64,000 nucleotides of DNA from Alphaproteobacteria bacterium (lineage in GTDB: Bacteria; Pseudomonadota; Alphaproteobacteria; Bin95). A program made the position numbers and the translations under genes. Location of the stretch: NCBI GenBank assembly GCA_965206075.1, contig CBDBIS010000005.1, positions 3,155,041 to 3,219,040 on the forward strand. The letters are read 5' to 3'. Positions 1,138 to 57,512 of this stretch are shown one piece after another. The stretch's first letter is position 1. Each line of letters starts with the position of its first letter. Below the pieces are notes generated by a model, which saw nothing but the letters and a program-made list of their open reading frames with translations, searched no databases and was not told the DNA's origin.

Positions 1138-2339
1138 GCGCCGGCCTCCAGAAATGCGTCGATTCGTTCCTCGACCGCCCTGTGCAGCGCGTCGCCGGGC
1201 GTTTCGTCCAGGATCTCGGAAAGGAATGCGCGCACGAGAAGCCCGCGGGCGGTGTCGGCGGGAATGCCGCGTGTGCGCAGATAGAAGAGCGCGTCCCCGT
1301 CTATGTCGCCGGCCGTCGCGCCGTGGCTGCACTGGACGTCGTCGGCATAGATTTCGAGCACCGGCTTGGCGTCGATCTCGGCCCGGCCGGAGAGCAGCAG
1401 CGCGCGGTTGAGCTGGTGGCCGTCCGTCTTCTGCGCGCCCTCGGCGACGACGATATGGCCCTGGAAGACGCCGCGTGCCTGCCCGCCGATGGCGCCCTTG
1501 TACACCTGCCGGCTGGTCGCGCCCGGCGCGCGGTGCTCGATGCGGCTCGTATGGTCGGCAAGCTGCCGGCCGGCGACGGCATAAGCCCCCTTGAGGGAGA
1601 GTTCCGCGCCTTCGCCCAGGATTTCGGTCTCGATCTGGTTGCGCGAAAGCCGCGCGCCGAAGGTGAAGACCGTGCTCTCCAGCACCGCGTCCTGGCCGAG
1701 CCGCGCGGGCATGAACCAGAGATGGTGCGCGTCCGTCCCTTCCTCCTGGAGCTTGGTGTGGCGCAGCCTGCCGCCGGCTGCCACTTCGACCTCGGTCACG
1801 CCGTTGACGAAATAGGCGCCGGTTCCGAGCCCGATATGGCGTTCTACGACATGCGCCTCGCCGCCCGGTTCGACGGCGATCCGGTTGCGCGACTGGGCGA
1901 CCGGCCCGGTCCGGCCCGGAACGGTCGCATGGACGATCTCGATGGGTTCTTCCCGCGCGTCGCCCACGGTCAGGACATAGCCGTCGCCCGACATGGCGGC
2001 GTTGAGCGCGACCAGTGGCTCTCCCTCCGCGCCTGCTGCGCCGTTCGGCCCGGCCCAGCGGCCGACGGGAACGGTCGTGAGGTCCTCGCGCAGGAAGCCG
2101 TTGACCAGGACGATGCGCGGCCCGTCGCCGAGAAAGGGCACCGCTGCTTCCATATCGGGCCCCGCCGGCCGGAAGCGCTGGCGCGCGAGCGGGCGCAGGC
2201 TCGTATATTTCCACGCCTCGACACGGTTGGTCGGGAAGCCCTTCGCGGCGAAGGCCTCGAAGGCGGCCCCGCGCTCGCCCGGCAGCGAGGCGCGGATGCT
2301 CTCGAACGCCTCGCGATAGGTGTCCACGCCGAGCGTCAT
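1134..2339 (-). CDS. sufD: Fe-S cluster assembly protein SufD
   Basis: 401-aa ORF (MTLGVDTYREAFESIRASLPG...). Sits between sufC and sufS with 4-nt overlaps. SufD-like C-terminal region. Confidence 0.85.
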   Translation of the reverse strand: MTLGVDTYREAFESIRASLPGERGAAFEAFAAKGFPTNRVEAWKYTSLRPLARQRFRPAGPDMEAAVPFLGDGPRIVLVNGFLREDLTTVPVGRWAGPNGAAGAEGEPLVALNAAMSGDGYVLTVGDAREEPIEIVHATVPGRTGPVAQSRNRIAVEPGGEAHVVERHIGLGTGAYFVNGVTEVEVAAGGRLRHTKLQEEGTDAHHLWFMPARLGQDAVLESTVFTFGARLSRNQIETEILGEGAELSLKGAYAVAGRQLADHTSRIEHRAPGATSRQVYKGAIGGQARGVFQGHIVVAEGAQKTDGHQLNRALLLSGRAEIDAKPVLEIYADDVQCSHGATAGDIDGDALFYLRTRGIPADTARGLLVRAFLSEILDETPGDALHRAVEERIDAFLEAGA

Positions 2340-3084
2340 GCCGCCTCGCCCATGATTTCGCCGTAGCCCTTCTCCTCCAGCTCGAGTGCGAGCTCGCTGC
2401 CGCCCGAACGGAGGATCCGGCCCTTCGCCAGCACATGCACCCGGTCCGGCACGATATGGTCCAGCAGGCGCTGGTAATGGGTGATGATGAGCATCGCCCG
2501 GTCCGGCGAGCGGAGAGCGTTTACCCCTTCGGCGACCACCTTGAGCGCGTCGATGTCGAGGCCGCTGTCGGTCTCGTCGAGGATCGCCAGTCGCGGCTCC
2601 AGAATCGCAAGCTGGAGCATTTCGTTGCGCTTCTTCTCGCCGCCGGAAAAGCCGACATTCAGCGCGCGCTTCAGCATGTCGTCGCCGATGCCGAGCGCGC
2701 GCGCCTTCTGGCGCACGACGCGCAGGAACTGCATGGCGTCGAGCTCGTCCTCGCCCCGGCCGCGCCGGAGCGCATTGAGCGCCGTGCGCAGGAAGGTCAT
2801 GGTGCCCACGCCCGGAATCTCGACCGGATACTGGAAGGCGAGGAAGAGGCCGGCCGCCGCGCGGTCCTCCGGCTCCAGCTCCAGCAGGTCCCGGCCGTCG
2901 TAAAGCACCTCGCCACGGTCCACCGTGTAGCCCTCGCGGCCCGAAAGCACATAGGAGAGCGTGCTCTTGCCGGACCCGTTAGGGCCCATCACGGCATGCA
3001 CCTCGCCGGCGCCGACGGAAAGGCTGACGCCGTTCAGAATCGCCTGGTCCTCGACCGAGGCGTGGAGATCGCGGATTTCAAGCA

Positions 3085-3085
<1 letters not shown>
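2336..3085 (-). CDS. sufC: Fe-S cluster assembly ATPase SufC
   Basis: Start moved to the internal ATG (MLEIRDLHASVEDQ...). Walker A GPNGSGKST and Walker B LAILDETDSGLD. The upstream part of the track ORF is Arg/Pro-rich shadow. Confidence 0.9.
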
Positions 3086-4535
<1,450 letters not shown>

Positions 4536-4539
<4 letters not shown>

Positions 4540-4976
4540 GGGTGCAACTCCTGCGCCTCGAAACGCGAAAAGTCCCGCATCGGGGCCAGCATGTCGGCGA
4601 GCGTCACCTCCTCCAGCGCATCTCGGACCGCATTGTTGATCCGGTCCCAGGAACCGCGCAGCAGGCAGGTCGCTTCGATGGCGCAGTCGCCGCCGTCCAC
4701 GCAGGCGGTCAGCGCCACCGGGCCGTCCACCGCCAGCACGATCTCGGCGACCGAAATGTCTTCGGCCGGCCGGTCGGCCGTGTAGCCGCCATGCGCGCCC
4801 CGGACCGAGGCGACGAGCCCTGCATGGGCCAGCGCCTTCAACACCTGTGACACCGTCGAGGCGGCCAGGCCCGTCGCTTCGGCGACCTCGCTCGCCGAGC
4901 GCGGCCGGTCGGGCCGGGACGCCAGCTGCCCCAGCACGACGACGGCATAGTCGTTCATCCGGCTAAGTCTCAGCAT
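4536..4976 (-). CDS. Rrf2-family (IscR/RirA-like) transcriptional regulator heading the suf operon
   Basis: 146 aa. N-terminal wHTH ([13 protein letters not shown]...) and a C-x5-C-x5-C cluster motif ([13 protein letters not shown]). 4-nt overlap with sufB. Confidence 0.8.
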
Positions 4977-4980
4977 CGCC

Positions 4981-5009
4981 CCAATCCGTAGTCAATCGCT
5001 CCGGATTGG
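4981..5009. promoter_or_regulatory. perfect 8-bp inverted repeat CCAATCCG-N13-CGGATTGG, candidate Rrf2 operator
   Basis: Lies 5 nt upstream of the Rrf2 start codon, in the divergent suf/NUDIX intergenic region. Confidence 0.35.
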
Positions 5010-5104
5010 AAACTGTACCGGAACGCTACGGATTTCAAGCCCCGCACGACGTGCGCGACGGAATGCCCGTGCCCTTGCCCTCCGCCGCCGCTATAAGGGC
5101 GGGC

Positions 5105-5884
5105 ATGGAGCAGTCTCCGGCCATTCCGAAGCCCGCCGCCAGCGTGCTCATCCTGCGCGACGGGCCGGACGGCCTCGAAGTCTTCATGGTGCTGCGCAGC
5201 CCGGAGCTCGACTTTTCCTCGGGCGCGCTGGTGTTTCCGGGCGGCAAGGTCGATCCGGAAGACGGGGACCCTCTGCTGGCCGCGCGCGCCACCGGGCGCT
5301 TCGGCGAGAGGGCGCGGGCGCATCGCATCGCGGCCGTGCGCGAGGCGTTCGAGGAGACCGGCGTGCTGCTGGCGCGGCGCGCGGACGGAACGCTGCTGCC
5401 GCCGGAGGACGCCGGGCGGATCGTTGCGCGCTGGCGGGCGGGCGTGCATGACGGCAGCGTGCCCTTCGACCGCTTCCTCGAAGCCGAGGACCTGGTCGCC
5501 GACACGGCGGCGCTCTGCCATTGCGCGCACTGGATCACGCCGGAGCACTCGGCCAGGCGCTTCGACGTGCATTTCTACCTGGCCGCCCTGCCGCCGGCCC
5601 AGGATGGCAGCCATGACGGCTCCGAATCGGTGGACTCGCTCTGGATCCGTCCGGAAACCGCGCTTCGCGATGCCGCCGAAGGGAGCCGGCCGATCATGTT
5701 CCCGACCCGCGCCATCCTGTCCAGGCTGGCGCGCTCCCGCAATGTGAACGACGCGCTCAGGCGCGCAGAGGCCGAGCCCGTGGAGACGGTGATGACGCGC
5801 ATCGCGGCCACGCCGGCCGGGCGGGTGCTGCGGATTCCCCGCAGCGCCGGCTACCCGATGTCGGAACTCGCCCTCGACAGCTAG
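5105..5884 (+). CDS. NUDIX hydrolase
   Basis: Nudix box GGKVDPED...REAFEETGV. Start chosen at the internal ATG (MEQSPAIPKP...); alternatives are 5006 and 5063. Confidence 0.75.
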   Translation: MEQSPAIPKPAASVLILRDGPDGLEVFMVLRSPELDFSSGALVFPGGKVDPEDGDPLLAARATGRFGERARAHRIAAVREAFEETGVLLARRADGTLLPPEDAGRIVARWRAGVHDGSVPFDRFLEAEDLVADTAALCHCAHWITPEHSARRFDVHFYLAALPPAQDGSHDGSESVDSLWIRPETALRDAAEGSRPIMFPTRAILSRLARSRNVNDALRRAEAEPVETVMTRIAATPAGRVLRIPRSAGYPMSELALDS

Positions 5885-5904: not shown

Positions 5905-6639
5905 ATGTTCGATCTCAGCGGCAGGACCGCGCTGGTTACCGGCGCATCGGGCGGCATCGGCGCCGCGATAGCGCGTGCGCTCGCGGGGCAGGGCGCCCGG
6001 GTCGGGCTTTCCGGCACCCGGGAGGCGGCGTTGGAGGCGCTGGCGGGCGAGCTCGACGGCGCGGCCGTGCTGCCCTGCAACCTCGGCGACAGCGAGGCGG
6101 CGGACGGCCTGGTGGGGCGGGCGGAAGAGGCGCTCGGTCCGCTCGACATCCTCGTCAGCAATGCCGGCGTCACGCGCGACGGCCTCTTCCTGCGCATGCG
6201 CGACGAGGACTGGCAGACGGTGCTCGACATCAACCTGACCGCGGGTTTCCGCCTCGCCCGCTCGTCGCTGCGCGGGATGATGCGCCGCCGGAACGGGCGC
6301 ATCATCGCCGTTTCCTCCGTGGTCGGCGTCACCGGCAATCCGGGCCAGGCGAACTATGCGGCCTCCAAGGCCGGCATGATCGGCATGACGAAAGCCGTCG
6401 CCGCCGAGGTTGCGGGACGGGGCGTGACGGTCAATTGCATCGCGCCCGGCTTTGTCGACACCGCCATGACGGAGGAATTGAACGAGAAACAGAAAGCCCA
6501 GGCGCTCGACCGCGTGCCGGCCGGGCGCTTCGGCGTTCCGGACGATGTCGCGGCCGCAGCGGTGTTCCTCGCCAGCGACGAAGCGGCCTACATCACCGGG
6601 CAGACCTTGCACGTAAATGGCGGCATGGCGATGATATGA
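5905..6639 (+). CDS. fabG: 3-oxoacyl-ACP reductase FabG
   Basis: 244 aa. TGASGGIG Rossmann motif and YAASKAG active site. Located upstream of acpP-fabF. Confidence 0.9.
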   Translation: MFDLSGRTALVTGASGGIGAAIARALAGQGARVGLSGTREAALEALAGELDGAAVLPCNLGDSEAADGLVGRAEEALGPLDILVSNAGVTRDGLFLRMRDEDWQTVLDINLTAGFRLARSSLRGMMRRRNGRIIAVSSVVGVTGNPGQANYAASKAGMIGMTKAVAAEVAGRGVTVNCIAPGFVDTAMTEELNEKQKAQALDRVPAGRFGVPDDVAAAAVFLASDEAAYITGQTLHVNGGMAMI

Positions 6640-11352: not shown

Positions 11353-11379
11353 TTGACTGGGAGAAAAGTGTAGTAGAAT
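11353..11379 (+). promoter_or_regulatory. sigma70-like promoter motif of module copy 1 (TTGACT-15 nt-TAGAAT)
   Basis: The same motif, spacing and GGGA..AAAGTG spacer recur at copies 3 and 4. The 15-nt spacer is shorter than optimal. Confidence 0.45.
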
Positions 11380-11391
11380 GCAGGATGAGAG

Positions 11392-11422
11392 AAGGCGGCT
11401 CTCCGGGGCCGCCTTTCGGCTT
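11392..11422 (+). terminator. terminator-like hairpin plus U-rich tail at the module 5' end; intron insertion site
   Basis: AAGGCGGC (11392-99) pairs with GCCGCCTT (11408-15) and is followed by TCGGCTT. Equivalent hairpins with UUUCCGCUUUUCU tails occur in copies 2 and 4. Confidence 0.45.
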
Positions 11423-12093
11423 GTGTGCCGAGCATGGCCAACAGCTTGGAGGTGCAAGTCCTCTATCCAGCCCGATGGCGGCGAAGGATTAGCGAAGCGC
11501 AAGGGCGTCGCCGCGAGGCGGGGTCTGAAGGAAGCGTGGAGCAAAGCCGCGACCCGATGGACAAGAACCGGATACGAGGCCTACCCGGCCGGACGAGCGA
11601 GCAAGCGATCGCGAAGTCCGCAGCCATCAAGGGCCGGGGTGGTAAATCCGGCGGGTGTGCGGTGAAGGCGGTTGGTCTTACCTCGGGAGGTCTGCGTCGT
11701 GTCCGGAACCCCCGGACTGAGCGGTTCCGCAAGGGCCGTGATCGCGGCGCAGAAGTCAGCAGAGGGCATAGTAGCCGGCCCCCCGGCGAAGGCCCGAACG
11801 ACGGACAGGGTTATTAGGACGGCAGGCTCATGCGGACCAAGCGGCAGAACATCCAGTTGGAACTGGCCTTGGAGCCGGAGGCGAGGGGTGAAGCCCGGAG
11901 CGCCGGAGACCGAGGGACCGAAGCCCGTATGGCGCGTGCCGACCCCGAACGCCCGGCGGCTGTCTTCGACAGGCTCGGCCTCGCCTCCCTGCGAGGCCGT
12001 TCCGCAGCTTAAATCCGTCGAACCGCCGTGTACGGACCCGTATGCACGGTGGTGTGGGAGGGGTGGAGCCGTGAGGCTCCCCCCTATCCCGAT
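11423..12093 (+). mobile_element. ORF-less (RT-deleted) group II intron, class C-like
   Basis: Boundaries follow from comparison with the uninterrupted copy 2. 5' end is GTGTG and 3' end is ...GAT. Hand-folded domain V (12022-12053, with CGC triad and 2-nt bulge) and domain VI (12056-12090, with GUGA loop and bulged A12086). An IEP remnant ORF lies inside. Confidence 0.75.
11830..12012 (+). pseudogene. remnant of the intron-encoded reverse transcriptase/maturase (N- and C-terminal stubs only)
   Basis: 60 aa: MRTKRQNIQLELALEPEARGEARSAGDRGTEA...FDRLGLASL. Resembles IEP termini as I remember them. No RT motifs are present. Confidence 0.55.
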
Positions 12094-12483
12094 TTCTGCG
12101 CAGGGAAACAAGGGCTGGGGCCGAAAAAAGCTCCGGCGGGAACGAACGGGAGACGTGCGCCTTCCGTCTCGCGCGCGCAATCAGCCGCGCGAACCGCGCC
12201 GGCGCTGACGCGCGCGGGCGGGCACGGGCGCGCGCGCAGGATACGCGCGCAAAAAGGGTCCCGCCGCCTGGGGGCGCCCAGGCCGGCAGCGGCGCGGACG
12301 GAATGGAGCGGAACGCGACGGAGCAAACGATATGCAGGAACGGAACCGCAGAGCTTCGGAGGCGGCATGAGGAACATGACAATCCATGACACATTGCAGG
12401 GGTCATTCATGAATCGCCCCGCCTGCGCGCTGGCGGAAGCGGCCGGCGACGCCCGGCAAGGCCCCGTCTGAGCAGCCATGGAT

Positions 12484-12840
12484 AACGGTTTTCTGCGTTC
12501 GTTCGGCTTCCGGGGCCGCCTTTCGCTTTTCTGCGCAGGGAAGCAATGGCTGGGGCCGCAAAAAGCCCCGGCGGGAACGGACAGGCGAGTTGCGCCTGCC
12601 GCCTCGCGTGCGCAATCGGGTGCGCGAGCCGCGCTGGCGCAAGACGCGGGGGCGGCAAGGGCGCGCATGCAGGATACGCGCGCAAAAAGGGTCCCGCTGC
12701 CTGAGGGCGGCCAGGCCGGTGGCGACGCGGACGGAATGGAGCGGAACGGAAAGCGACGGAGAGAACGACATGCAGGAACGGAACTGCGGAGCTTCGACGA
12801 TGGCATGGCGAACATGACACTTCATGACACAATGCAGGGG
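12484..12840 (+). repeat. GC-rich non-coding module, copy 2 (no promoter motif)
   Basis: Uninterrupted gccgcctttcgcttttctgcgcaggg junction. More diverged core, CATGGC/CATGAC/CATGAC at 12804/12813/12823, and TGCAGGGG ending at 12840. Confidence 0.75.
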
Positions 12841-14504: not shown

Positions 14505-15470
14505 ATGTTGTCGCTGGTTGCCGCGCAGGGTCTGACCAAACGCTTCGATGCGCATGTGGCCGTGGACCGTATCGACCTGGAGGTCGGCGCGGGCGAGGTG
14601 CTGGGCTTTCTCGGGCCCAACGGCGCGGGCAAGTCCACGACGATGAAGATGATTGCGGGGTTTCTCGCCCCGACCGAGGGCCGCGCGGCGATCTGCGGCC
14701 ACGATGTGACCGACGATCCGATTCGGGCGCGGCGCAATCTCGGCTATCTGCCGGAAGGCGCGCCGCTCTACGGCGACATGACCGCAGGCGCCTTCCTCGC
14801 CTTCGTCGCCGCCATGCGCGGCCTTTCCGGTCGGCGGGGCCGCGCCGCCATCGGGCTTGCGGTCGAGCGCACCGCCCTCGCCGAGGTGCTGGCGCAGCCC
14901 ATCGACACGCTCTCCAAGGGTTTCAAGCGCCGCGTCGGCCTTGCCCAGGCGCTGCTGCACGACCCGCCGGCGCTGATCCTGGACGAGCCGACCGACGGGC
15001 TCGACCCGAACCAGAAACACGAAATGCGCGCGCTGATACGGGAAATCCGTCCCTCGAAGGCCATCGTGATCTCCACCCACATCCTCGAGGAGGTCGATGC
15101 CGTCTGCACCCGCGCGGCCATCATCTCCGGCGGCCGGCTGCTTGCGGACGCAGCACCTGGCGAACTGGCGGCACGGTCCCCGCTGAACAATGCCGTGTCC
15201 CTGACACTCGGCGCGCAGCACGCCGAAGCGGCCGCCGCGTCGCTGGGCGGGCTGGAGCGCGTGGAAGCGGTCCATCGCGAACCGGCGGGTCCGAACGCCG
15301 TGCGCCTGACCGCGCTTTCCCGGGACGGCCGGCCCATCCTTGCGGATGTCGGGCTGCTGGTTCGGGCGCACGGCTGGGAGGCGAGCGACCTGCGGACGGA
15401 AACCGGAGCGCTCGACGACGTGTTCCGGCGCATGACGCAGCCCGGTGAGGAGGCGCTTCGCAATGGCTAG
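14505..15470 (+). CDS. ABC transporter ATP-binding protein (GldA-like, ABC-2 type)
   Basis: Start at the internal ATG (MLSLVAAQGL...). Walker A GPNGAGKST, signature LSKGFKRR, Walker B LILDEPTDGLD. Confidence 0.85.
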   Translation: MLSLVAAQGLTKRFDAHVAVDRIDLEVGAGEVLGFLGPNGAGKSTTMKMIAGFLAPTEGRAAICGHDVTDDPIRARRNLGYLPEGAPLYGDMTAGAFLAFVAAMRGLSGRRGRAAIGLAVERTALAEVLAQPIDTLSKGFKRRVGLAQALLHDPPALILDEPTDGLDPNQKHEMRALIREIRPSKAIVISTHILEEVDAVCTRAAIISGGRLLADAAPGELAARSPLNNAVSLTLGAQHAEAAAASLGGLERVEAVHREPAGPNAVRLTALSRDGRPILADVGLLVRAHGWEASDLRTETGALDDVFRRMTQPGEEALRNG

Positions 15471-19329: not shown

Positions 19330-20056
19330 CCTCGCCGCGCGCGATGTCCAGGAACACCTCTTCCATGGTGCGCCGGCCGTAGCGCGCTATGAGGGCGTCG
19401 GGCGCGCCCCGGTCCACCAGCCGTCCGGCCTTCATCATCAGCACGTCGCGGCACAGCCGCTCGACCTCCAGCATGTTGTGCGAGGCGAGCAGGATGGTCG
19501 CGCCCGTCCGCTCCACATAGGCGGCGAGATAGGCGCGCACCCAGTCGGCGGTTTCCGGGTCGAGCGAGGCGGTCGGCTCGTCGAGAAGCAGCAGCCGGGG
19601 CTCGTTCACCAGCGCCTTGGCGAGCGCGAGGCGGGACTTCTGCCCCGCCGACAGCGTGCGCGTCCTCTGTTTCAGGAAGGGTGTTAGTTCCAGCGTTTCC
19701 GCCAGTTCCCGCACCTGCCGCCCCGCCCGCGCCACGCCGTAGAGGCGCGCATAGACCAGCAGGTTCTCCTCTGCCGTCAGCCGTCCGGGAAGCTCGACAT
19801 AGGGGGAGGAGAAGTTCATGCGCTCCAGTGCCCGGTAGCGGTTGCGGGTCATGTCGGCGCCGAGCGCATGCACCGTCCCGGAGGTGGGCAGCAGCAGGCC
19901 GAGCAGCATGGCGATGGTGGTCGTCTTGCCCGCCCCGTTGCCGCCGAGCAGCGCGACGATGCCGCCGGGCTCCAGGTCGAAGGTCAGCCCGTCCACGGCC
20001 TTCACGGGCCCGAACTCCTTCGAGAGGTCCCGAACCGAGACGGCCCATTCGCTCAT
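19304..20056 (-). CDS. ABC transporter ATP-binding protein with no adjacent permease
   Basis: Walker A GGNGAGKTT, signature LSAGQKSR, Walker B LLLDEPTASLD. Its 3' end overlaps the convergent DUF4340 gene by 26 nt. Confidence 0.85.
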   Translation of the reverse strand: MSEWAVSVRDLSKEFGPVKAVDGLTFDLEPGGIVALLGGNGAGKTTTIAMLLGLLLPTSGTVHALGADMTRNRYRALERMNFSSPYVELPGRLTAEENLLVYARLYGVARAGRQVRELAETLELTPFLKQRTRTLSAGQKSRLALAKALVNEPRLLLLDEPTASLDPETADWVRAYLAAYVERTGATILLASHNMLEVERLCRDVLMMKAGRLVDRGAPDALIARYGRRTMEEVFLDIARGEASSRPRPP

Positions 20057-20098: not shown

Positions 20099-21397
20099 AT
20101 GAAGGTTTTAGAGCCCGCGCCGCCCCGGGGCGAGACCGGCTTCGTGCAGACGCGCACGCTGGTGCTGATTCGCTGGGTTGCGGTGGCGGGCCAGGCGGGC
20201 ACGGTGCTGGTCGTCCATTTCGGCTTCGGCTACCGGCTGCCGATAGAAGCGGCGGCGGCGGTCATTGCGATGTCGGCGGCCGTCAACCTGTATGCCAGCC
20301 TGCACCATCGCGGCGGTGCCGGCCTGCCGGAGCCGCAGGCCTTCGGCTTCCTCGCCTTCGACACGCTGCAGCTCGCCCTGCTGCTCTTCCTGACGGGCGG
20401 CCTCCAGAACCCGTTCGCGCTGCTGCTGCTGGCACCGGTCACGGTGGCGGCGTCGGTGCTGTCCCGGGCAAGCTGCATCAAGCTCGTCGTGCTGGCCGCG
20501 GCCGCTGCGAGCGCGCTGTCGGTCTGGCACATGCCGTTGCCCTGGGACGGGCCGCCGCCCACCATGCCGGCGGAGCTGGTGCTGGGCATCTGGTTCGCCA
20601 CCATCACCGCCATCGCCTTCCTGGCCGTCTATGTGGGGCAGGTGGCCATCGAGCGGCGCCGGATGACGGATGCGGTCTCGGCCGCGCAGGATGCGCTGGC
20701 GCGCGAGCAGCGCGTCGCCGATCTCGGCACGCTCGCCGCGGCGGCCGCGCACGAACTCGGCACGCCGCTCGCCACCATCACCGTCGTCGCCTCGGAACTC
20801 GCGCGCGAAGTGCCGGCGGACAGCCCGCTCGCCGAGGACGCGCAGTTGCTGAAGAGCCAGGCGGAGCGGTGCAAGGAGATCCTGACGGAACTGTCGAGGC
20901 ACCCGGATGCCCAGGGCGCCTCCTATCTGAGGATGCCGCTCACGGCGTTGATCGACAGCACCGCCGACCCGCACCGGCGCGGGTCCATCGACCTTGCGAT
21001 CCTCGGGCGCGGGCGCGACGACTCGCCGGAGCCGTTCCTGGAACGCCGCCCCGAACTGGTGAACGGCCTCGGCAACATCCTTTCCAACGCCCTGCAATTC
21101 GCCAGGAGCCGCGTCGACGCCTCCATCGTCTGGGACGCGGAGCGCGTCGGGGTGACGATCTCGGACGACGGGCCGGGCTTCCCGGCGGCGCTGATGGGAC
21201 GCCTGGGCGAGCCTTACCTCTCCACGCGGCGGGGCAGCGACGGTCATATGGGCCTCGGCATCTTCATTGCGCGCACACTACTGGAGCGCACGGGCGCGGA
21301 TGTCACCTTCCTCAACCGCCGCCAGGGAGGGGCGGAGGTTGAGGTTCTCTGGCCGCGCGTCATACTGGAGCCCGTGACAAGGGGTGAGGAGCGATGA
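20099..21397 (+). CDS. regB: redox-sensing histidine kinase RegB/PrrB/ActS
   Basis: Multi-TM N-terminus, H-box AAAHELGTPLATI and an HATPase C-terminus. Start uncertain (20060 or 20099). Confidence 0.8.
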   Translation: MKVLEPAPPRGETGFVQTRTLVLIRWVAVAGQAGTVLVVHFGFGYRLPIEAAAAVIAMSAAVNLYASLHHRGGAGLPEPQAFGFLAFDTLQLALLLFLTGGLQNPFALLLLAPVTVAASVLSRASCIKLVVLAAAAASALSVWHMPLPWDGPPPTMPAELVLGIWFATITAIAFLAVYVGQVAIERRRMTDAVSAAQDALAREQRVADLGTLAAAAAHELGTPLATITVVASELAREVPADSPLAEDAQLLKSQAERCKEILTELSRHPDAQGASYLRMPLTALIDSTADPHRRGSIDLAILGRGRDDSPEPFLERRPELVNGLGNILSNALQFARSRVDASIVWDAERVGVTISDDGPGFPAALMGRLGEPYLSTRRGSDGHMGLGIFIARTLLERTGADVTFLNRRQGGAEVEVLWPRVILEPVTRGEER

Positions 21398-21945
21398 ACG
21401 AACAGCAAGGCTCCGGCGACGCCGGCACACTCCTGTTGGTCGATGACGACCCGCCCTTCCTGAACCGTCTGGCGCGGGCGATGGAGCGGCGCGGTTTCGA
21501 TGTGCGCACGGCCGCATCGGTCGCGGACGGCAAGGCGGCCGTGGATATCGACCCGCCCGACTACGCCGTGGTGGACCTTCGCCTCGGCGACGGCAGCGGC
21601 GTCGATGTGGTCTCGCACCTGCAGACCGTCCGTCCCGAGAGCCGCGCGATCATCCTCACCGGCTACGGCAATATCGCGACCGCGGTGGCGGCGGTGAAGG
21701 TCGGCGCCATCGACTACCTGCCGAAGCCGGCGGACGCCGACGCCATCGAGACGGCGCTGAAACATATGGGCGCGGACCCGCCGGGGCCTCCGGAGCTGCC
21801 GATGTCGCCCGACCGCGTGCGCTGGGAGCATATCCAGCGCATCTACGAGCAGTGCGGGCGCAATGTCTCGGAAACCGCGCGCCGGCTGCGCATGCACCGC
21901 CGCACCCTCCAGCGCATCCTCGCCAAATACGCGCCCAGGGAATAA
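21394..21945 (+). CDS. regA: response regulator RegA/PrrA/ActR
   Basis: Receiver domain plus the highly conserved HTH NVSETARRLRMHRRTLQRILAKYAPRE. Confidence 0.9.
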   Translation: MNEQQGSGDAGTLLLVDDDPPFLNRLARAMERRGFDVRTAASVADGKAAVDIDPPDYAVVDLRLGDGSGVDVVSHLQTVRPESRAIILTGYGNIATAVAAVKVGAIDYLPKPADADAIETALKHMGADPPGPPELPMSPDRVRWEHIQRIYEQCGRNVSETARRLRMHRRTLQRILAKYAPRE

Positions 21946-22016
21946 CGCGCGCCGCCCTTCTCCTTTCCCGCCTGCGGGAGAGGCCGGAGAGGCCCCCTGC
22001 AGCGCGTCATGAGATG

Positions 22017-22886
22017 TCATGTTTTGTCATGCGGCGGGGTTGCGGCGGTGGCTTGCCGCCTGTCGGGGCCGGCGTTTCGGACGCGGGCGAGAGTGCGGGC
22101 GAGGGAGGCTTCCGTGCGGCGGTGCTGCCTTTCGTGCCATGCCGTGTATTCGGGCGAGGGCAGCTTGCCGACGAACTTCCGCCCGCTGACATGGCAGTCG
22201 ATCGGGCCGCCGAGGCCCCCGCCTATCGTGACCGGCCCGAACCGGCGCTCCTTGTCTTCCAGCCACGCCCGGAACTCGGGCGTCTCCTGGCTGCCGGCCC
22301 AGACCTCGCCGCCATAGTGGAACTCGTCCTCGCTGCCGTCATAGTCCGACACATAAGGGTCGGGCTCTTCGAACGGGTCGTCGAGACCGTCCAGAGGCTC
22401 CTCGACGGGTTCCGGTTCCGGTTCGGGCAGGTGCGCGGCGGCCCAGTCGAGCACGGCGAGGAGCTGGCGCAGATGGCTGAGCCGGGCGCGTCCGGCGCGG
22501 TGGCGTTCGGCAAGTGCGCGGTCGTCCTCCGGCGGCGGCCCGGCGCTTATACCAGCGGTCGTTGATCGGAACCTATGGTGATGGTCCCCACCGTCACCCC
22601 GGCCTCCGAGCCGGGGGCCAGCCTCGGTTCTCGCGGCAACTTCAGCGGTCGAGCCTGCTCTCCACCGGCTACGGCATCGTCGAGAGCCATGGATGGACCC
22701 CGGCTCTCCGCTTCGCTCCGGCCGGGGTGACGCAGAGGGAAAACCGGGCGGCAATCTCCATGAGTCACAAACCGGAGCCGCTGGTATTAGGTCTTCGGCA
22801 TAGGCTTCGGCGAGGGCTTCGGCGGCCGGCGCCAGCCCTGCGGCCAGCTTCGCCGCCAGTTGGGGGCGGGGGTCGGTTGCAGTCAT
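22017..22886 (-). CDS. hypothetical acidic protein (289 aa as it stands; 209 aa before the MITE insertion)
   Basis: ATG preceded by AAGGAGGA. High G/C at codon position 3 in codons 1-31 and again after the MITE, with poor coding character inside 22547-22789. No domain that I recognise. The track ORF extends upstream to 23453 through the non-coding core. Confidence 0.5.
   Translation of the reverse strand: MTATDPRPQLAAKLAAGLAPAAEALAEAYAEDLIPAAPVCDSWRLPPGFPSASPRPERSGEPGSIHGSRRCRSRWRAGSTAEVAARTEAGPRLGGRGDGGDHHHRFRSTTAGISAGPPPEDDRALAERHRAGRARLSHLRQLLAVLDWAAAHLPEPEPEPVEEPLDGLDDPFEEPDPYVSDYDGSEDEFHYGGEVWAGSQETPEFRAWLEDKERRFGPVTIGGGLGGPIDCHVSGRKFVGKLPSPEYTAWHERQHRRTEASLARTLARVRNAGPDRRQATAATPPHDKT
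22550..22786. mobile_element. 237-nt MITE with 9-bp TIR TACCAGCGG/CCGCTGGTA and 3-bp TSD TTA
   Basis: TSD copies at 22547-49 and 22787-89. Internal long palindrome CGTCACCCCGGCC...GGCCGGGGTGACG (22592-22732). Element plus TSD is 240 nt, so the host ORF stays in frame. Confidence 0.7.
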
Positions 22887-23111
22887 GGTTCCTCCTTGCC
22901 GGTCCGGGTCCCTTTTTTGCGCGCGTATCCTGCGTGCGCGCCTGCGCCCGCCTGCGCGCGTCTTGCGCCGGCGCGGTTCGCACGCCTGATTGCGCGCGCG
23001 AGACAGAGGACGCACGTCTCCCGCCGGTTTCTCAGGAGTTTTCAGAAAGTGGCGCCGCTCGGCCGCACAACGCCGGGGAAGCGGCCTCCGGATGCCCCTT
23101 CTCCCGCTCCC

Positions 23112-23138
23112 ATCATACACTACTTTTCCCAGGGTCAA
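23112..23138 (-). promoter_or_regulatory. sigma70-like promoter motif of module copy 3 (TTGACC-15 nt-TATGAT)
   Basis: Reverse complement of ggtcaa (23133-38) and atcata (23112-17). Divergent from the DUF1028 gene. Confidence 0.45.
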
Positions 23139-23328
23139 GCCCCAAACGGGAACAAAAGAGAAAAATAATGGAAATATTTCATGTTTCGCAGGGGTAGCAT
23201 CGCGTTCGGTGCCAGGCCTCCGTCTTCGCGCCGGCGCCGGTTGCGGCCGGGCTTGAAATGCGTTTCGATCCGGGAGGACACGGCTCCGGCGCGGTTCCCG
23301 GCGGCGCAGGGGCGGGGAGGAGGAACCG

Positions 23329-23997: not shown

Positions 23998-24029
23998 GCC
24001 GGGCCGTAGTGAAGGCGCCCCCAAGGCTT

Positions 24030-24132
24030 CCGTCGTCACCCCGGACCCCGATCCGGGATCCATCCCCCGGCCTCTCCACCGGGTTGAACCGGTTGCGGTT
24101 GGGCCCCGGATCGGGGTCCGGGGCGACGACGG
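24030..24132. repeat. palindromic GC-rich element (GTCACCCCGGACCCCGATCCGGG family)
   Basis: 28-nt arms at 24030-24057 and 24105-24132, between the convergent DUF1028 and maeB genes. Confidence 0.7.
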
Positions 24133-24193
24133 AAAGCAGCGCCGGCGGCTACCCGTCGATGGACAGTCGATCCGTTATGGATCGCGCCGTGCC

Positions 24194-39862: not shown

Positions 39863-39921
39863 GGCTTGCAGCCTTCCTTCGTTTCCGTTCTCCGCTCCCG
39901 GCCCGCAGGGACGGGAGACCT

Positions 39922-40308
39922 CCCTATGTGTCATGAAGCGTCATGTTTTGTCATGCGATGTCATGTTCGCCATGCCCTTGCCGGCGTTGCGCCGTGCCAT
40001 TCCGGCATATCGTTTTCCATCGCGTTCCGCCTTCCTCCGTTCCGCCGTCGCCGGCAAAGCCTCCCATGCGCCCGGACCCTTTTTGCGCGCGTATCCTGCG
40101 TGCGTGCCCGCGCCCGCCTGCGCGCGTTGGCGCCGGCGCGGTTCGCGCACCTGATTGCGCGCGCGAGACAGCGGACGCACTTCGCCTGTCCGTTCCCGCC
40201 GGGGCTTTTTTCCGGCCCCAGCCATTGCTTCCCTCAGCAGAAAAGCGGAAAGGCGGCCCCGGGAGCCGCCTCTCTGCCGCCATTGTAGCACACTTTTCCC
40301 AATGTCAA
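39922..40308 (-). repeat. GC-rich module, copy 4, forming the leader of the VOC-amidase-AtzH-like operon
   Basis: Promoter motif at 40308-40282, hairpin with UUUCCGCUUUUCU, and a core nearly identical to copy 1. GTCATG at 39930/39940/39950/39960, then CCATG. Confidence 0.8.
40282..40308 (-). promoter_or_regulatory. sigma70-like promoter motif of module copy 4 (TTGACA-15 nt-TACAAT)
   Basis: Reverse complement of tgtcaa (40303-08) and attgta (40282-87). TG lies 1 nt upstream of the -10 (extended -10-like). Confidence 0.5.
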
Positions 40309-42850: not shown

Positions 42851-42995
42851 GCCGCCGCGCTTCAACCCTCTAATTTCCCCCGTCTCCCGCAGCCCCTTCC
42901 GGACGGCCTTGGCCGCATTCTTCCTGCCCGTGCTTGCCATGCTGGCAGCGTTCGGGCTGCTTTCCATCGACATGTACCTGCGGAGCCTGCCGGCC
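42851..42995 (+). pseudogene. duplicated 5' region of bcr (upstream ~56 nt plus the first ~29 codons), truncated
   Basis: Aligns with 43711-43853. Encodes (M)AAFFLPVLAMLAAFGLLSIDMYL.., then diverges and terminates. Confidence 0.65.
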
Positions 42996-43051
42996 TTCAG
43001 GCGGTTGTCGTCACTTGTCATATATTAACGCGCGGCGTTATCATTCACGGG

Positions 43052-43676: not shown

Positions 43677-43766
43677 GCGGGACGCGCGAGAATCCGCCGG
43701 ACCCCGCCTTGCCGCCGCGCGGCCACCGCCTAATTTCCCCGTCTCCCGAAGCCCTCCCGGATTGCC

Positions 43767-44945
43767 TTGGCCGCATTCTTCCTGCCCGTGCTTGCCGTGC
43801 TGGCGGCGTTCGGGCCGCTTTCCATCGACATGTATCTGCCGAGCCTGCCGGCCATCGGGCGGGAACTGGGCGCGTCCGCCGGCGGTGTGCAGCTCACGCT
43901 CTCCGCCTTCTTCGTCGGCTTCGGCGTCGGGCAGCTCCTCTACGGCCCGCTCTCGGACCGCTACGGGCGGCGGCCGATGCTGGTCTTCGGCGTCTCGGTC
44001 TATCTGGCGGCAAGCGCGGGCGCGGCCTTTGCGCCGGATATCGGGGCGCTGACCGCGGCGCGCTTCTTCCAGGCGCTCGGCGGCGGGGCGGCGACGGTGA
44101 TCGCGCGGGCCTCGGTGCGCGACCGCCATTCTGGCGCGGAAGCCGCGCGCATGCTCTCCACGCTCATGCTCATCATGGGCGCGGCTCCCCTGCTTGCGCC
44201 CTCGCTCGGCGCGCAGATACTCCTCTTCGCGGACTGGCGGGCGATCTTCCTGGTCCTCGCCGCCTGGGGCGTGCTTGCGCTGCTGGCGGTCCTCTTCCTG
44301 CTGCCGGAGACGCGGCCTCCCGAGACGCGCATCCGCGCCGGCCTCGGCTCGATCTTCGTGAACTATGCCCGCCTCCTCTCGGAGCGGCGCACACTCGGCT
44401 GCATGCTCGCAAGCGGCGGCGCCTTCGCCGGCATGTTCGCCTACATCTCCGGCACGCCCTTCGTGTTCATGGAGGTGTTCGGCGTCTCGCCCCGGACCTA
44501 CGGGCTGCTGTTCGCCGTCCATATCCTCGCGATCATGGGCGGCGCCTGGACCAACCGCCGGCTGGTCGCCCGCTTCGGTCCCGGCGGCATGATGGTGCGG
44601 GGCACATGGCTGCTTCTCGCCGCGGGCCTTGCGCTCGTCCTCGTCGTGCTGCTGCTGCCGGGGAGCCTCGCCGCCATCGTCGCCGCGCTCTTTTGTTTCA
44701 TGTTCGCCCTCAACCTGATCGCCGCCAACACCATCGTCATCGCGACGGCCGACAAGGCGGAGATCGCCGGCACCGTCATCGCGCTGATCGGCGCGGGGCA
44801 TTTCGCGCTCGGCACGCTGTCTGGCCTTGCGGTCGGCCAGTTCCACGACGGCACGGCGCTGCCGCTCGCGCTCACGGTCGCGGCGTGCGGGCTGGTGTCC
44901 TTCTCCGCCAACCGCTGGCTGGTGGGGGCGCCCAAGGCAGATTGA
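43767..44945 (+). CDS. Bcr/CflA-family MFS efflux transporter
   Basis: 392 aa, 12-TM pattern with LSIDMYLPSLP and GPLSDRYGRRP motifs. Apparent TTG start. Confidence 0.85.
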   Translation: MAAFFLPVLAVLAAFGPLSIDMYLPSLPAIGRELGASAGGVQLTLSAFFVGFGVGQLLYGPLSDRYGRRPMLVFGVSVYLAASAGAAFAPDIGALTAARFFQALGGGAATVIARASVRDRHSGAEAARMLSTLMLIMGAAPLLAPSLGAQILLFADWRAIFLVLAAWGVLALLAVLFLLPETRPPETRIRAGLGSIFVNYARLLSERRTLGCMLASGGAFAGMFAYISGTPFVFMEVFGVSPRTYGLLFAVHILAIMGGAWTNRRLVARFGPGGMMVRGTWLLLAAGLALVLVVLLLPGSLAAIVAALFCFMFALNLIAANTIVIATADKAEIAGTVIALIGAGHFALGTLSGLAVGQFHDGTALPLALTVAACGLVSFSANRWLVGAPKAD

Positions 44946-55658: not shown

Positions 55659-55763
55659 CCGTCGCCCCGGCCGGAGCGGAGCGGAGAGCCGGGGCCCATC
55701 TCCCGCCTGTGCGATATGCGCGACGGTCCGGAGATGGGCCCCGGATCGGGTCCGGGGCGACGA
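55659..55763. repeat. palindromic GC-rich element (GTCGCCCCGG...CCGGGGCGAC family)
   Basis: Outer arms at 55661-70 and 55752-61. Inner arms GAGCCGGGGCCCATCTCC / GGAGATGGGCCCCGGATC. Confidence 0.65.
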
Positions 55764-57261: not shown

Positions 57262-57512
57262 GCCGGGGCGTCGCCGCCGCTTCCGCTGGCGCGGAAGCGG
57301 CCCCCCACCCGGCCTCCCCCGCAAGCGGGGGAGGAGAAAGCGGTGGCCGCCCTGCGAGCGGGGGAGGGGATTGAGAGGGCGGGGCTCCTTCCCGTCCGGC
57401 GGCAGACGGTCCCTTTTCTCCCCTCCCGCTTGCGGGAGGGGTTGGGGGAGGGTCTCCCGGCGTGCCGGGCTTTTGCCGGGCTTTGCCCGCAAGCGGGGGC
57501 CACGGTCTCCCC
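57262..57512 (+). repeat. REP/RIME-like GC-rich repeat cluster
   Basis: gccgcttccgctggcgcggaagcgg ccccccacccggcctcccccgcaagcgggggagg... plus further GGGAGGGG/CCCCTCCC hairpins. Confidence 0.7.

Follow-up and report, generated by a model that had tools for sequence, protein, structure and literature searches.

We describe a repeated module in a 64,000-nucleotide stretch of an alphaproteobacterial chromosome (GenBank assembly GCA_965206075.1, contig CBDBIS010000005.1, positions 3,155,041 to 3,219,040), referred to here as the window. The window holds four copies of the module, and copy 3, which lies convergent to regA, encloses an open reading frame (ORF) for an acidic protein that we call type A. 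At a probability of roughly 60%, we favour the reading that these modules form a lineage-specific, high-copy family of gene cassettes that share both ends, are expressed together, and use those ends as recombination handles. A cassette family with two conserved ends and a swappable cargo between them is previously undescribed, and it extends the concept of putative mobile promoters.

Each unit is ordered as an AT-rich block, a promoter (TTGACA-N15-TAnnAT), a leader, a Shine-Dalgarno (SD) sequence, a cargo ORF, two to five CATGACAnnn units, a GGGG motif and a hairpin. The promoter would drive a transcript in which the leader acts as a shared cis-acting RNA, and all cassettes would be expressed and regulated together by some common factor. 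The two conserved blocks would also serve as portable homology, through which cargoes could be swapped, merged or dropped; stretches of chromosome lying between module copies in inverted orientation would flip. Internal deletions, together with strikes by miniature inverted-repeat transposable elements (MITEs) or insertion sequences (IS), would erode type A copies to short forms.

Layout of the module and its cargoes

In the window, the four copies can be aligned at the leader and at the 3' block, and what they hold between these differs; the copies are 77–94% identical over 52–156 nt. According to an earlier note on this DNA, the promoter and leader of copy 3 run into an SD sequence and ATG, the stop codon sits inside the CATGAC array, and TGCAGGGG follows directly; reading the sequence directly bears out each of these points (Table 1). 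The first array unit of copy 3 encodes His-Asp, and the TGA stop of the ORF is part of the second. The same SD-ATG arrangement recurs in three further loci (L002, L134 and L135), and the flank behind the array is orthologous in L001, a contig from another strain (sample ERZ25069412). In most modules the motif (c)GCAGGGGTC comes after the last CATGAC unit.

The 31-nt leader core was found at 99 loci or more among species-representative genomes, in about 13 species of metagenome-assembled genomes (MAGs). Among the matches listed, all come from MAGs of uncultured Alphaproteobacteria except one 1.8-kb contig labelled Pseudohongiella, and single genomes carry from 13 to more than 25 module loci dispersed around the chromosome. 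The core had no match in viral contigs. Many of the MAGs bear names of the kind given to sponge-derived bins, and in the literature we found no described multi-copy small RNA (sRNA) or cassette of relevance in sponge symbionts.

A promoter of the form TTGAC(A/T/C)-N15-TA(T/G/C)(G/A)AT, with a 15-nt spacer, precedes 73 of 80 modules. It is missed by a generic sigma-70 scan, which assumes spacers of 16–18 nt. A short spacer preceded by GC fits the Caulobacter-type housekeeping consensus. AT-rich blocks (TTTGTTC, (C)ATGAAA(A/T)A..TCC) lie 5' of the -35 box in most modules; LexA and CtrA boxes were considered by eye for this upstream block, and neither fits. From the presumed start just past the -10 box to the SD, the leader measures about 210 nt.

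At the other end, CATGAC-N4-CATGAC with no more than one mismatch matches the window seven times, always within the four modules, against 0.22 matches expected. In 772 kb of related loci we counted 97 array clusters, and 95 of them have a leader on the same strand within 2.6 kb upstream, so that the array is part of the module and not a free-standing genomic motif. One of the two exceptions is a stub, in which the leader's first hairpin, P1, is fused to TGCAGGGG and an array. The 10-bp phasing of the units suggests a DNA-binding protein; a transcript feature is just as compatible with their fixed orientation and with stop codons falling inside them. CAUGACA was also considered as an antisense seed that would pair with start regions (UGUCAUG), and no signal of this was seen in the window.

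Between these ends, one type of promoter, leader and array encloses five types of cargo, or none. Type A is an acidic protein of about 200 aa (window copy 3). Type B is an ORF of 12–15 codons, MQER.G..AWRT before the stop (window copies 1, 2 and 4; L001, L027, L036 and L100), type C an ORF of about 41 codons, MPKTRNR..EYPEP..C..H.EHDKT before the stop, and type D reads MPEVNRGYTPPACGS up to its stop. Type E comprises proteins of 326–337 aa with a Terminase_2 helix-turn-helix (HTH) domain (modules L029, L030, L035, L044, L084 and L095). In empty modules (L006, L075 and L003) the leader passes directly into the array. Short-cargo ORFs span 15 to 41 codons across modules. For every cargo type the ORF enters the CATGACA block and terminates there, and with the 10-nt period successive units present TGA in all three frames.

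By a rough, pattern-based classification of the 105 modules listed, type A is intact in 6 and eroded in 28, types B and C account for 13 each, and types D and E for 6 each. Type B rises to 14 with window copy 4, whose ORF starts ATGCCGGAA and which the rough classifier had left unclassified; the remaining modules, the empty ones included, are clipped by a contig end or unclassified. The 28 type A remnants are frameshifted, internally deleted or disrupted by MITEs, and they keep the ATGACCGCAACCGACCC start (MTATDP..) and the ..HDKT end before the stop. In L088, L089 and L098 the cargo is a hybrid that begins as type A and finishes as type C. We also observed stub modules in L063 (minus strand; reversed coordinates ~6290–6400) and 5' of the module in L097, where P1 is joined almost directly to TGCAGGGG and the array; leader and cargo are deleted, and each stub stands in tandem with a full module.

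Table 1. Module features in the window. Ranges are window positions; features without a range are given by their sequence.
Feature	Position	Strand	Details
Copy 3 module (type A)	23138..21994	-	read directly from sequence
AT-rich stretch 5' of copy 3 -35	23141..23186	-	gaaacatgaaatatttcc..ttttgttccc; read from sequence
Copy 3 promoter, -35 box	23138-23133	-	TTGACC, followed by a 15-nt spacer
Copy 3 promoter, -10 box	23117-23112	-	TATGAT
Hairpin P1	23075..23104	-	5' end of predicted transcript; compensatory changes across modules
Conserved GC-rich leader	22898..23074	-	alignment of copies
Leader core, hairpin P4	22995-22965	-	GCGCAATCAGGCGTGCGAACCGCGCCGGCGC; helix UCGCGCGC/GCGCGCGA flanking a GCAAUCAG loop
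Hairpin P5		-	GATAC loop; also in leader
Shine-Dalgarno	22897-22890	-	AAGGAGGA; 3 nt before ATG (22886-22884)
Type A cargo ORF	22886..22017	-	870 nt, 289 aa as found; stop TGA 22019-22017
MITE-like insertion in type A ORF	22547-22789	-	243 nt, in frame; terminal inverted repeats TACCAGCGG / CCGCTGGTA; TAA duplication
Copy 3 array	22031-22026, 22021-22016, 22011-22006	-	three CATGAC(A)nnn units, 10-nt period
TGCAGGGG motif of copy 3	22001-21994	-	within 21965..22001 with GC-rich hairpin; hairpin common to convergent regA 3' end
Copy 1 module (type B)	11353..12401	+	promoter 11353-11379, mini-ORF 12332-12370, array 12366-12390, then TGCAGGGG
Group II intron in copy 1 leader	11423-12093	+	671 nt, without ORF; Rfam D1-D4 and domain V/VI models
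Copy 2 module (type B)	12504..12840	+	P1 from 12504, core 12610-12640, mini-ORF 12770-12817, array 12804-12828
Copy 4 module (type B-like)	39919..40308	-	promoter 40308-40282, core 40160-40130, mini-ORF 40008-39961; array of four to five CATGAC units, 39975-39930

Cargo proteins and the predicted leader RNA

Without the in-frame insertion that interrupts it, the type A protein of copy 3 is acidic and has 208 aa, one residue fewer than the 209 given earlier. This de-interrupted sequence has 174 homologues (E ≤0.01), nearly all of 190–223 aa and none with a Pfam domain, with up to five paralogues on a single 3.99-Mb contig. A 40-member alignment contains 33 invariant and 46 nearly invariant columns, and the homologues share the start, the SD, a constant length and the motifs YDGSEDEF and TPEFxAW. 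Within the protein we found an internal duplication (YDGSEDEF..GSQETPEFRAWLE..RR, then ..FVGKL.TPEF.AW.ERQ.RR). Many members end in ..PPHDKT, encoded by CCG CCG CAT GAC AAA ACA TGA, with the array in frame. GC content is 0.80–0.83 at third codon positions (GC3) and about 0.53 at second positions (GC2), as expected for coding DNA, and pairwise ratios of nonsynonymous to synonymous substitution rates (dN/dS) range from 0.48 to 1.06, near 1 in one pair, which speaks neither clearly for nor clearly against purifying selection on the ORF.

An AlphaFold2 model built with the 40-member alignment reached a predicted local distance difference test score of 71 (70–86 in the structured parts). It comprises a helical hairpin (residues 7–71), a disordered acidic linker (residues 80–99) and two repeats of a beta-hairpin plus helix. 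Searches against Pfam, NCBIfam and PADLOC and a profile search of PDB sequences gave no significant match, nor did PHROGs, whose top match (E 4e-4) was a family without assigned function, and a Foldseek search of the model against the PDB gave no match with E <1. None of these searches revealed a nuclease, recombinase, transposase or DNA-binding signature, and the protein has no recognisable domain.

Four type A loci were reached through the protein instead of the DNA pattern (L002, L132, L134 and L135; proteins 59–80% identical to the de-interrupted sequence). In all four, the promoter, P1 and leader lie directly 5' of type A, and the array is present in two. None of these four homologues stands without promoter and leader, and the wide occurrence of the protein without its module, which the earlier note named as refuting its view, was thus not observed. 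In L132 (2425–3597) and L134 (2200–3510) an IS element, IS21 IstB/IstA-like or of the DDE_Tnp_1 type, stands in place of the array, 130–330 nt 3' of the type A stop; these elements may have taken the place of the 3' block or used it as a target. We conclude that type A is a real, clade-restricted gene that is weakly constrained or fast-evolving.

The 243-nt insertion in the copy 3 ORF is missing from type A homologues, and its position corresponds to the loop predicted to join helices 1 and 2. Its boundaries are ambiguous by 2–3 nt because of the TAA duplication. It is a mosaic of short repeats common in these genomes, parts of which recur at 55660–55700 and in more than 25 related loci. Short GC-rich repeats of the repetitive extragenic palindrome (REP) or MITE type are abundant in general, at 22547–22789, 55660–55700, 24028–24134 and 57302–57452 of the window and at many other loci, with cores such as GTCACCCCGGCCGGAGCG.AGCGGAGAGCCGGGGTCCATC and CCTCCCCCGCAAGCGGGGGAGG, and elsewhere they split type A ORFs (L009, L014, L016, L018, L041, L074 and L086). 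The window has two other repeat pairs, neither of them related to the module. One is direct, 111 nt long and 91% identical, at a distance of 858 nt (42894–43004 and 43752–43862). The other is inverted, 103 nt long and 73% identical (14906–15008 and 19556–19658), and probably reflects paralogous genes for ATP-binding cassette transporter ATPases.

Type E is the best-conserved cargo, with at least 340 proteins at 70–95% identity and several intact paralogues per genome. Its first ~70 residues match Terminase_2 at 1e-11 and PHROGs of phage small terminase subunits (terS; best phrog_51), and a long, acidic, low-complexity remainder follows this N-terminal HTH. Where these proteins are named at all, the name is 'terminase small subunit'. 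Type E modules sit among ordinary metabolic genes and not in prophages, and no terminase large subunit gene (terL) or phage cluster was found beside those examined. A profile search found no viral relatives of type E, and hhalign found no relationship between the type A and type E profiles.

Copies 1, 2 and 4 differ from copy 3 between the shared ends, as previously described; what had been taken for a variable segment of ~100 nt is instead a conserved cargo, an ORF of 12–15 codons with its own SD and a stop inside the array. This cargo shares no sequence with type A, and the three copies carry a separate conserved cargo, not type A remnants. The location of copy 4 is stable: it occupies the same position in strain ERZ25069412 (L102, 95.6% identity), and its counterpart in another species (L100) has the same neighbouring gene on either side. 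The L100 module has a longer AT-rich upstream block, missing in window copy 4, and its 3' end is duplicated. We also observed an indel of 577 nt between strains (window ~40411; L102 1876–2453) in the gene that lies 5' of copy 4. This gene belongs to a cluster with Vsr, a C5 DNA methylase and a 262-aa gene, apparently of a restriction-modification-like kind.

Copy 2 stands in tandem behind copy 1 and has no promoter of its own. In the subfamily formed by copies 1, 2 and 4, P1 is followed by a U-rich tract, TTTCGCTTTTCT, and a terminator scan flags P1 in copy 2; the tract is not present in other module subfamilies. We considered P1 as a general intrinsic terminator and rejected it, since the U-tract is found in one subfamily only. 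The group II intron of copy 1 is inserted immediately 3' of this terminator-like hairpin. Class C group II introns target terminator motifs, and P1 with its U-tract probably explains the landing site. The L001 orthologue of copy 1 lacks the intron, which fixes both intron boundaries.

With Rfam 15 at the gathering threshold, only group II intron models passed in the window and the module had no match; permissive scans of copies 3 and 4 returned chance-level matches only (E >0.1). On an alignment of 44 leader sequences, helices P1 (at the 5' end), P4 and P5 were set by eye and their pairs then counted. Standard pairs filled 86.3% of cells, compared to 26–63% with slid partners, and double-sided changes occurred in 42 cells, compared to 22 in shuffles, with none of 500 shuffles matching the observed value. 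In P1, six of nine pairs show compensatory GC/AU switches and about 35 cells hold G:U. Since G:U pairs work only for the sense-strand RNA, P1 points to the sense strand. Insertions in the alignment fall in the P4 loop.

An inversion at regA and the competing readings

L001 encodes an identical RegA, adjoined by a type B module instead of type A. By BLAST, L001 positions 1–1672 correspond to window 20355–22023 (regB, regA and the post-array flank, into the copy 3 array), 1653–1954 to window 12392–12094 reversed (copy 1 array, cargo and leader, with no intron), and 2202–5591 to window 11110–7721 reversed (the 5' flank of copy 1). What separates the two strains is therefore an inversion bounded by copies 1 and 3, which point in opposite directions. 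The inverted segment is ~9.6 kb long and includes copy 2, regB and regA.

The junction lies inside an overlap of ~20 nt made of CATGAC units (window 12375–12390 and 22006–22031; L001 1653–1672), and the shared 3' block is therefore a recombination point. So short an overlap raises the question of site-specific versus homologous recombination. This inversion accounts for the long/short difference at regA without insertion or deletion of the ORF. The earlier note had proposed looking in relatives for presence/absence polymorphism in the regA interval: a relative does carry a short module there, and thus a long/short difference exists, but its cause is the inversion and not gain or loss of the ORF. 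The orthologous sites that we compared (copy 4 with L102 and L100; regA with L001) are occupied by a module in all genomes, with imprecise outer boundaries.

Several points weigh against the cassette reading. The inversion rests on one comparison of two strains, and no mechanism of module multiplication was found. For a constrained protein, the type A dN/dS values of 0.5–1.0 are high. We infer the transcript, its ends and the translation of any cargo, along with the biochemical roles of leader, array and cargoes, from sequence. In the leader, the invariance of the core is partly an artefact, the core itself having served as search pattern, and the helices tested were chosen from the same sequences as those counted. 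RNAalifold on the raw MAFFT leader alignment recovered invariant helices only, with zero compensatory pairs, because indels misalign P1 and the loops, and GC-rich repeats in the leader permit alternative folds.

The alternative that survives best, which we regard as possible though doubtful, is that the functional product is a non-coding RNA, consisting of the leader and a tail of CAUGACA repeats, which might serve as a sponge or decoy for an RNA-binding factor; the ORFs would be ancestral or incidental passengers and the short window copies sRNA genes. This generalises the earlier note's second proposal, of sRNA or decoy genes derived from the untranslated regions of the copy 3 gene. Modules without cargo do keep promoter, leader and array (L006, L075, L003/L054, L060 and L094), the leader displays RNA-type covariation, arrays lie downstream on the same strand, and most cargoes are short or degenerate. 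The position of type B is conserved between species, which would suit an RNA gene as well. However, the positions of an SD-like GGAG and of an ATG are preserved among the short copies, and the 15-codon length recurs in distant genomes (L001, L027, L036 and L100, besides copies 2 and 4). It is clear that types A and E have been kept as proteins, and the CAUGACA motif has no known partner and the RNA no Rfam match.

It is unlikely, in our estimate, that the CATGACA iterons are DNA sites for the type E HTH acting in trans, with modules serving as pac-like or recombination sites that drive shuffling and inversions. A 7-bp unit phased at 10 bp, one helical turn, would suit such a protein; an array directly follows the type E gene, and each genome retains several intact copies of it; and the inversion junction falls within arrays. 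SPP1-type pac sites offer a precedent, with direct repeats near terS (PMC4737164). We also found arrays of three CATGAC units in 29 IMG/VR viral contigs (L103–L131; GC 0.28 to 0.64), where CATGAC arrays may represent a recurrent protein-binding iteron of phages. In one (L109), a phrog_51 terS gene, followed by terL, stands 230 nt downstream of the array; others lie beside terL/portal, HNH-terL, ParB or integrase genes, and in L110 two inverted arrays adjoin a ParB-like gene.

Enrichment of arrays near terminases is weak. TerL accounted for ~5–6 of 82 ORFs near the arrays and for 2–4 of 133 control ORFs, taken from the same contigs at distances above 1.5 kb, among which terminases are present too. 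This enrichment, two- to four-fold on small numbers, is a lead and not a finding, and the phage arrays may be unrelated look-alikes. On the module side, neither terL nor a phage cluster adjoins type E modules, the type E profile is without viral match, and the rest of the protein is acidic and of low complexity. Arrays were never found apart from a leader, which would suit a transcript feature just as well. A more far-reaching proposal, which we consider improbable, would have promoter and leader co-express dozens of cargoes while type E binds the CATGACA iterons, which would then act as pac-like or recombination sites, shuffling cargoes and seeding inversions or packaging in sponge-type symbionts.

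Improbable too is a mobile element in which type A supplies the mobility function and short copies are non-autonomous internal deletions, as in the relationship of transposons and MITEs. Tens of dispersed copies per genome, the many deletion and frameshift remnants of type A with both ends kept, and the tandem and truncated copies (copy 2; the P1-array stubs of L063 and L097) are what it would predict. For the 28 remnants elsewhere among the 105 modules listed, the suggestion that short copies are internal deletions of a full-length form is upheld; it fails for window copies 1, 2 and 4, which hold type B cargo and no type A sequence. The transposon/MITE analogy itself is not sustained. Local alignments for terminal inverted repeats (copies 3, 4 and 1–2) scored 14–19, against a shuffle median of 14–15 and a 95th percentile of 19–21, and target duplications could not be defined. 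Type A has no transposase or recombinase signature, type E has only its terS-type HTH, and the same ends hold unrelated cargoes, including the better-conserved, multi-copy type E. Moreover, copies lie at orthologous positions across strains and species, as does copy 4 at its shared site.

It is very improbable that the type A ORF is no gene and stays open merely by chance, the DNA being GC-rich: the frame is open far upstream (478 aa from 23453), as is frequent at 69% GC, and dN/dS approaches 1 in one pair, yet the 174 homologues with their constant length and their shared start, SD and motifs, a GC3 of 0.82 against a GC2 of 0.54, and a consistent AlphaFold2 fold speak against it.

Significance and relation to known systems

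If the cassette reading is true, a clade of uncultured Alphaproteobacteria spends tens of near-consensus promoters per genome on one leader RNA and small orphan proteins. The leader would be a candidate for a new cis-regulatory RNA with many natural sequence variants. The modules would also hold two multi-copy protein families of unknown function, one of them built on a phage terminase DNA-binding domain outside phage, and would give an example of repeated promoter/leader and 3' blocks that act as recombination handles, swapping genes and inverting segments between strains. In practical terms, module repeats will break short-read MAG assemblies. Module ORFs are mostly annotated as hypothetical, and the 'terminase small subunit' label of type E could mislead as evidence of prophages.

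Integron cassettes combine a variable ORF with a conserved, recombination-prone 3' element that often holds the stop codon, and depend on the attC palindrome, IntI and attI. As in integron cassettes, unrelated module cargoes share a boundary, and empty and fused forms occur. Unlike integron cassettes, each module has its own promoter and leader, the modules are dispersed, and the 3' block consists of direct 10-bp iterons. Neither the window nor the surroundings of those modules that were examined showed an integrase or attI, and there is no attC-like palindrome.

The CcsR or 'cuckoo' alpha-r14 sRNAs are paralogous, sometimes tandem and strongly promoted, and carry a repeated short motif; they measure ~100–150 nt, have anti-SD CCUCCUCCC loops and are in Rfam. 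In contrast, the modules are 300–1300 nt long, have a CAUGACA tail, often code for protein and have no Rfam match.

Correia, ERIC, BOX and REPIN elements are short multi-copy intergenic repeats that may supply promoters and hairpins and mediate rearrangements. They carry no coding cargo, and their ends or units are inverted repeats or palindromes, respectively. In contrast, the modules lack terminal inverted repeats and have a direction, and the SD-led ORFs inside them reach 337 aa. All four kinds of repeat are named in PMC3575422.

In phages with Terminase_2-type small terminases (SPP1/SF6), the direct repeats of the pac site adjoin terS (PMC4737164). The type E module is similar in that an array lies behind a terS-like gene of the same HTH family, with binding putative. 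It differs from pac sites in that terL and phage context are absent and arrays also lie behind many cargoes that are not terS.

The closest concept is that of putative mobile promoters, which are similar promoter-bearing upstream sequences found before unrelated genes of one genome (Matus-Garcia, Nijveen & van Passel, NAR 2012; PMC3575422). Their mode of spread is unknown, and some contain RNA regulatory motifs (PMC3575422). With cargo types A–E, the modules fall within the definition of such promoters, namely at least 80% identity over at least 50 nt before non-homologous coding sequences in one genome. They differ from them in the longer unit (a promoter plus a leader of ~210 nt), in the second, 3' block and in the tens of copies per genome, and most module cargoes are tiny or eroded ORFs as opposed to ordinary genes.

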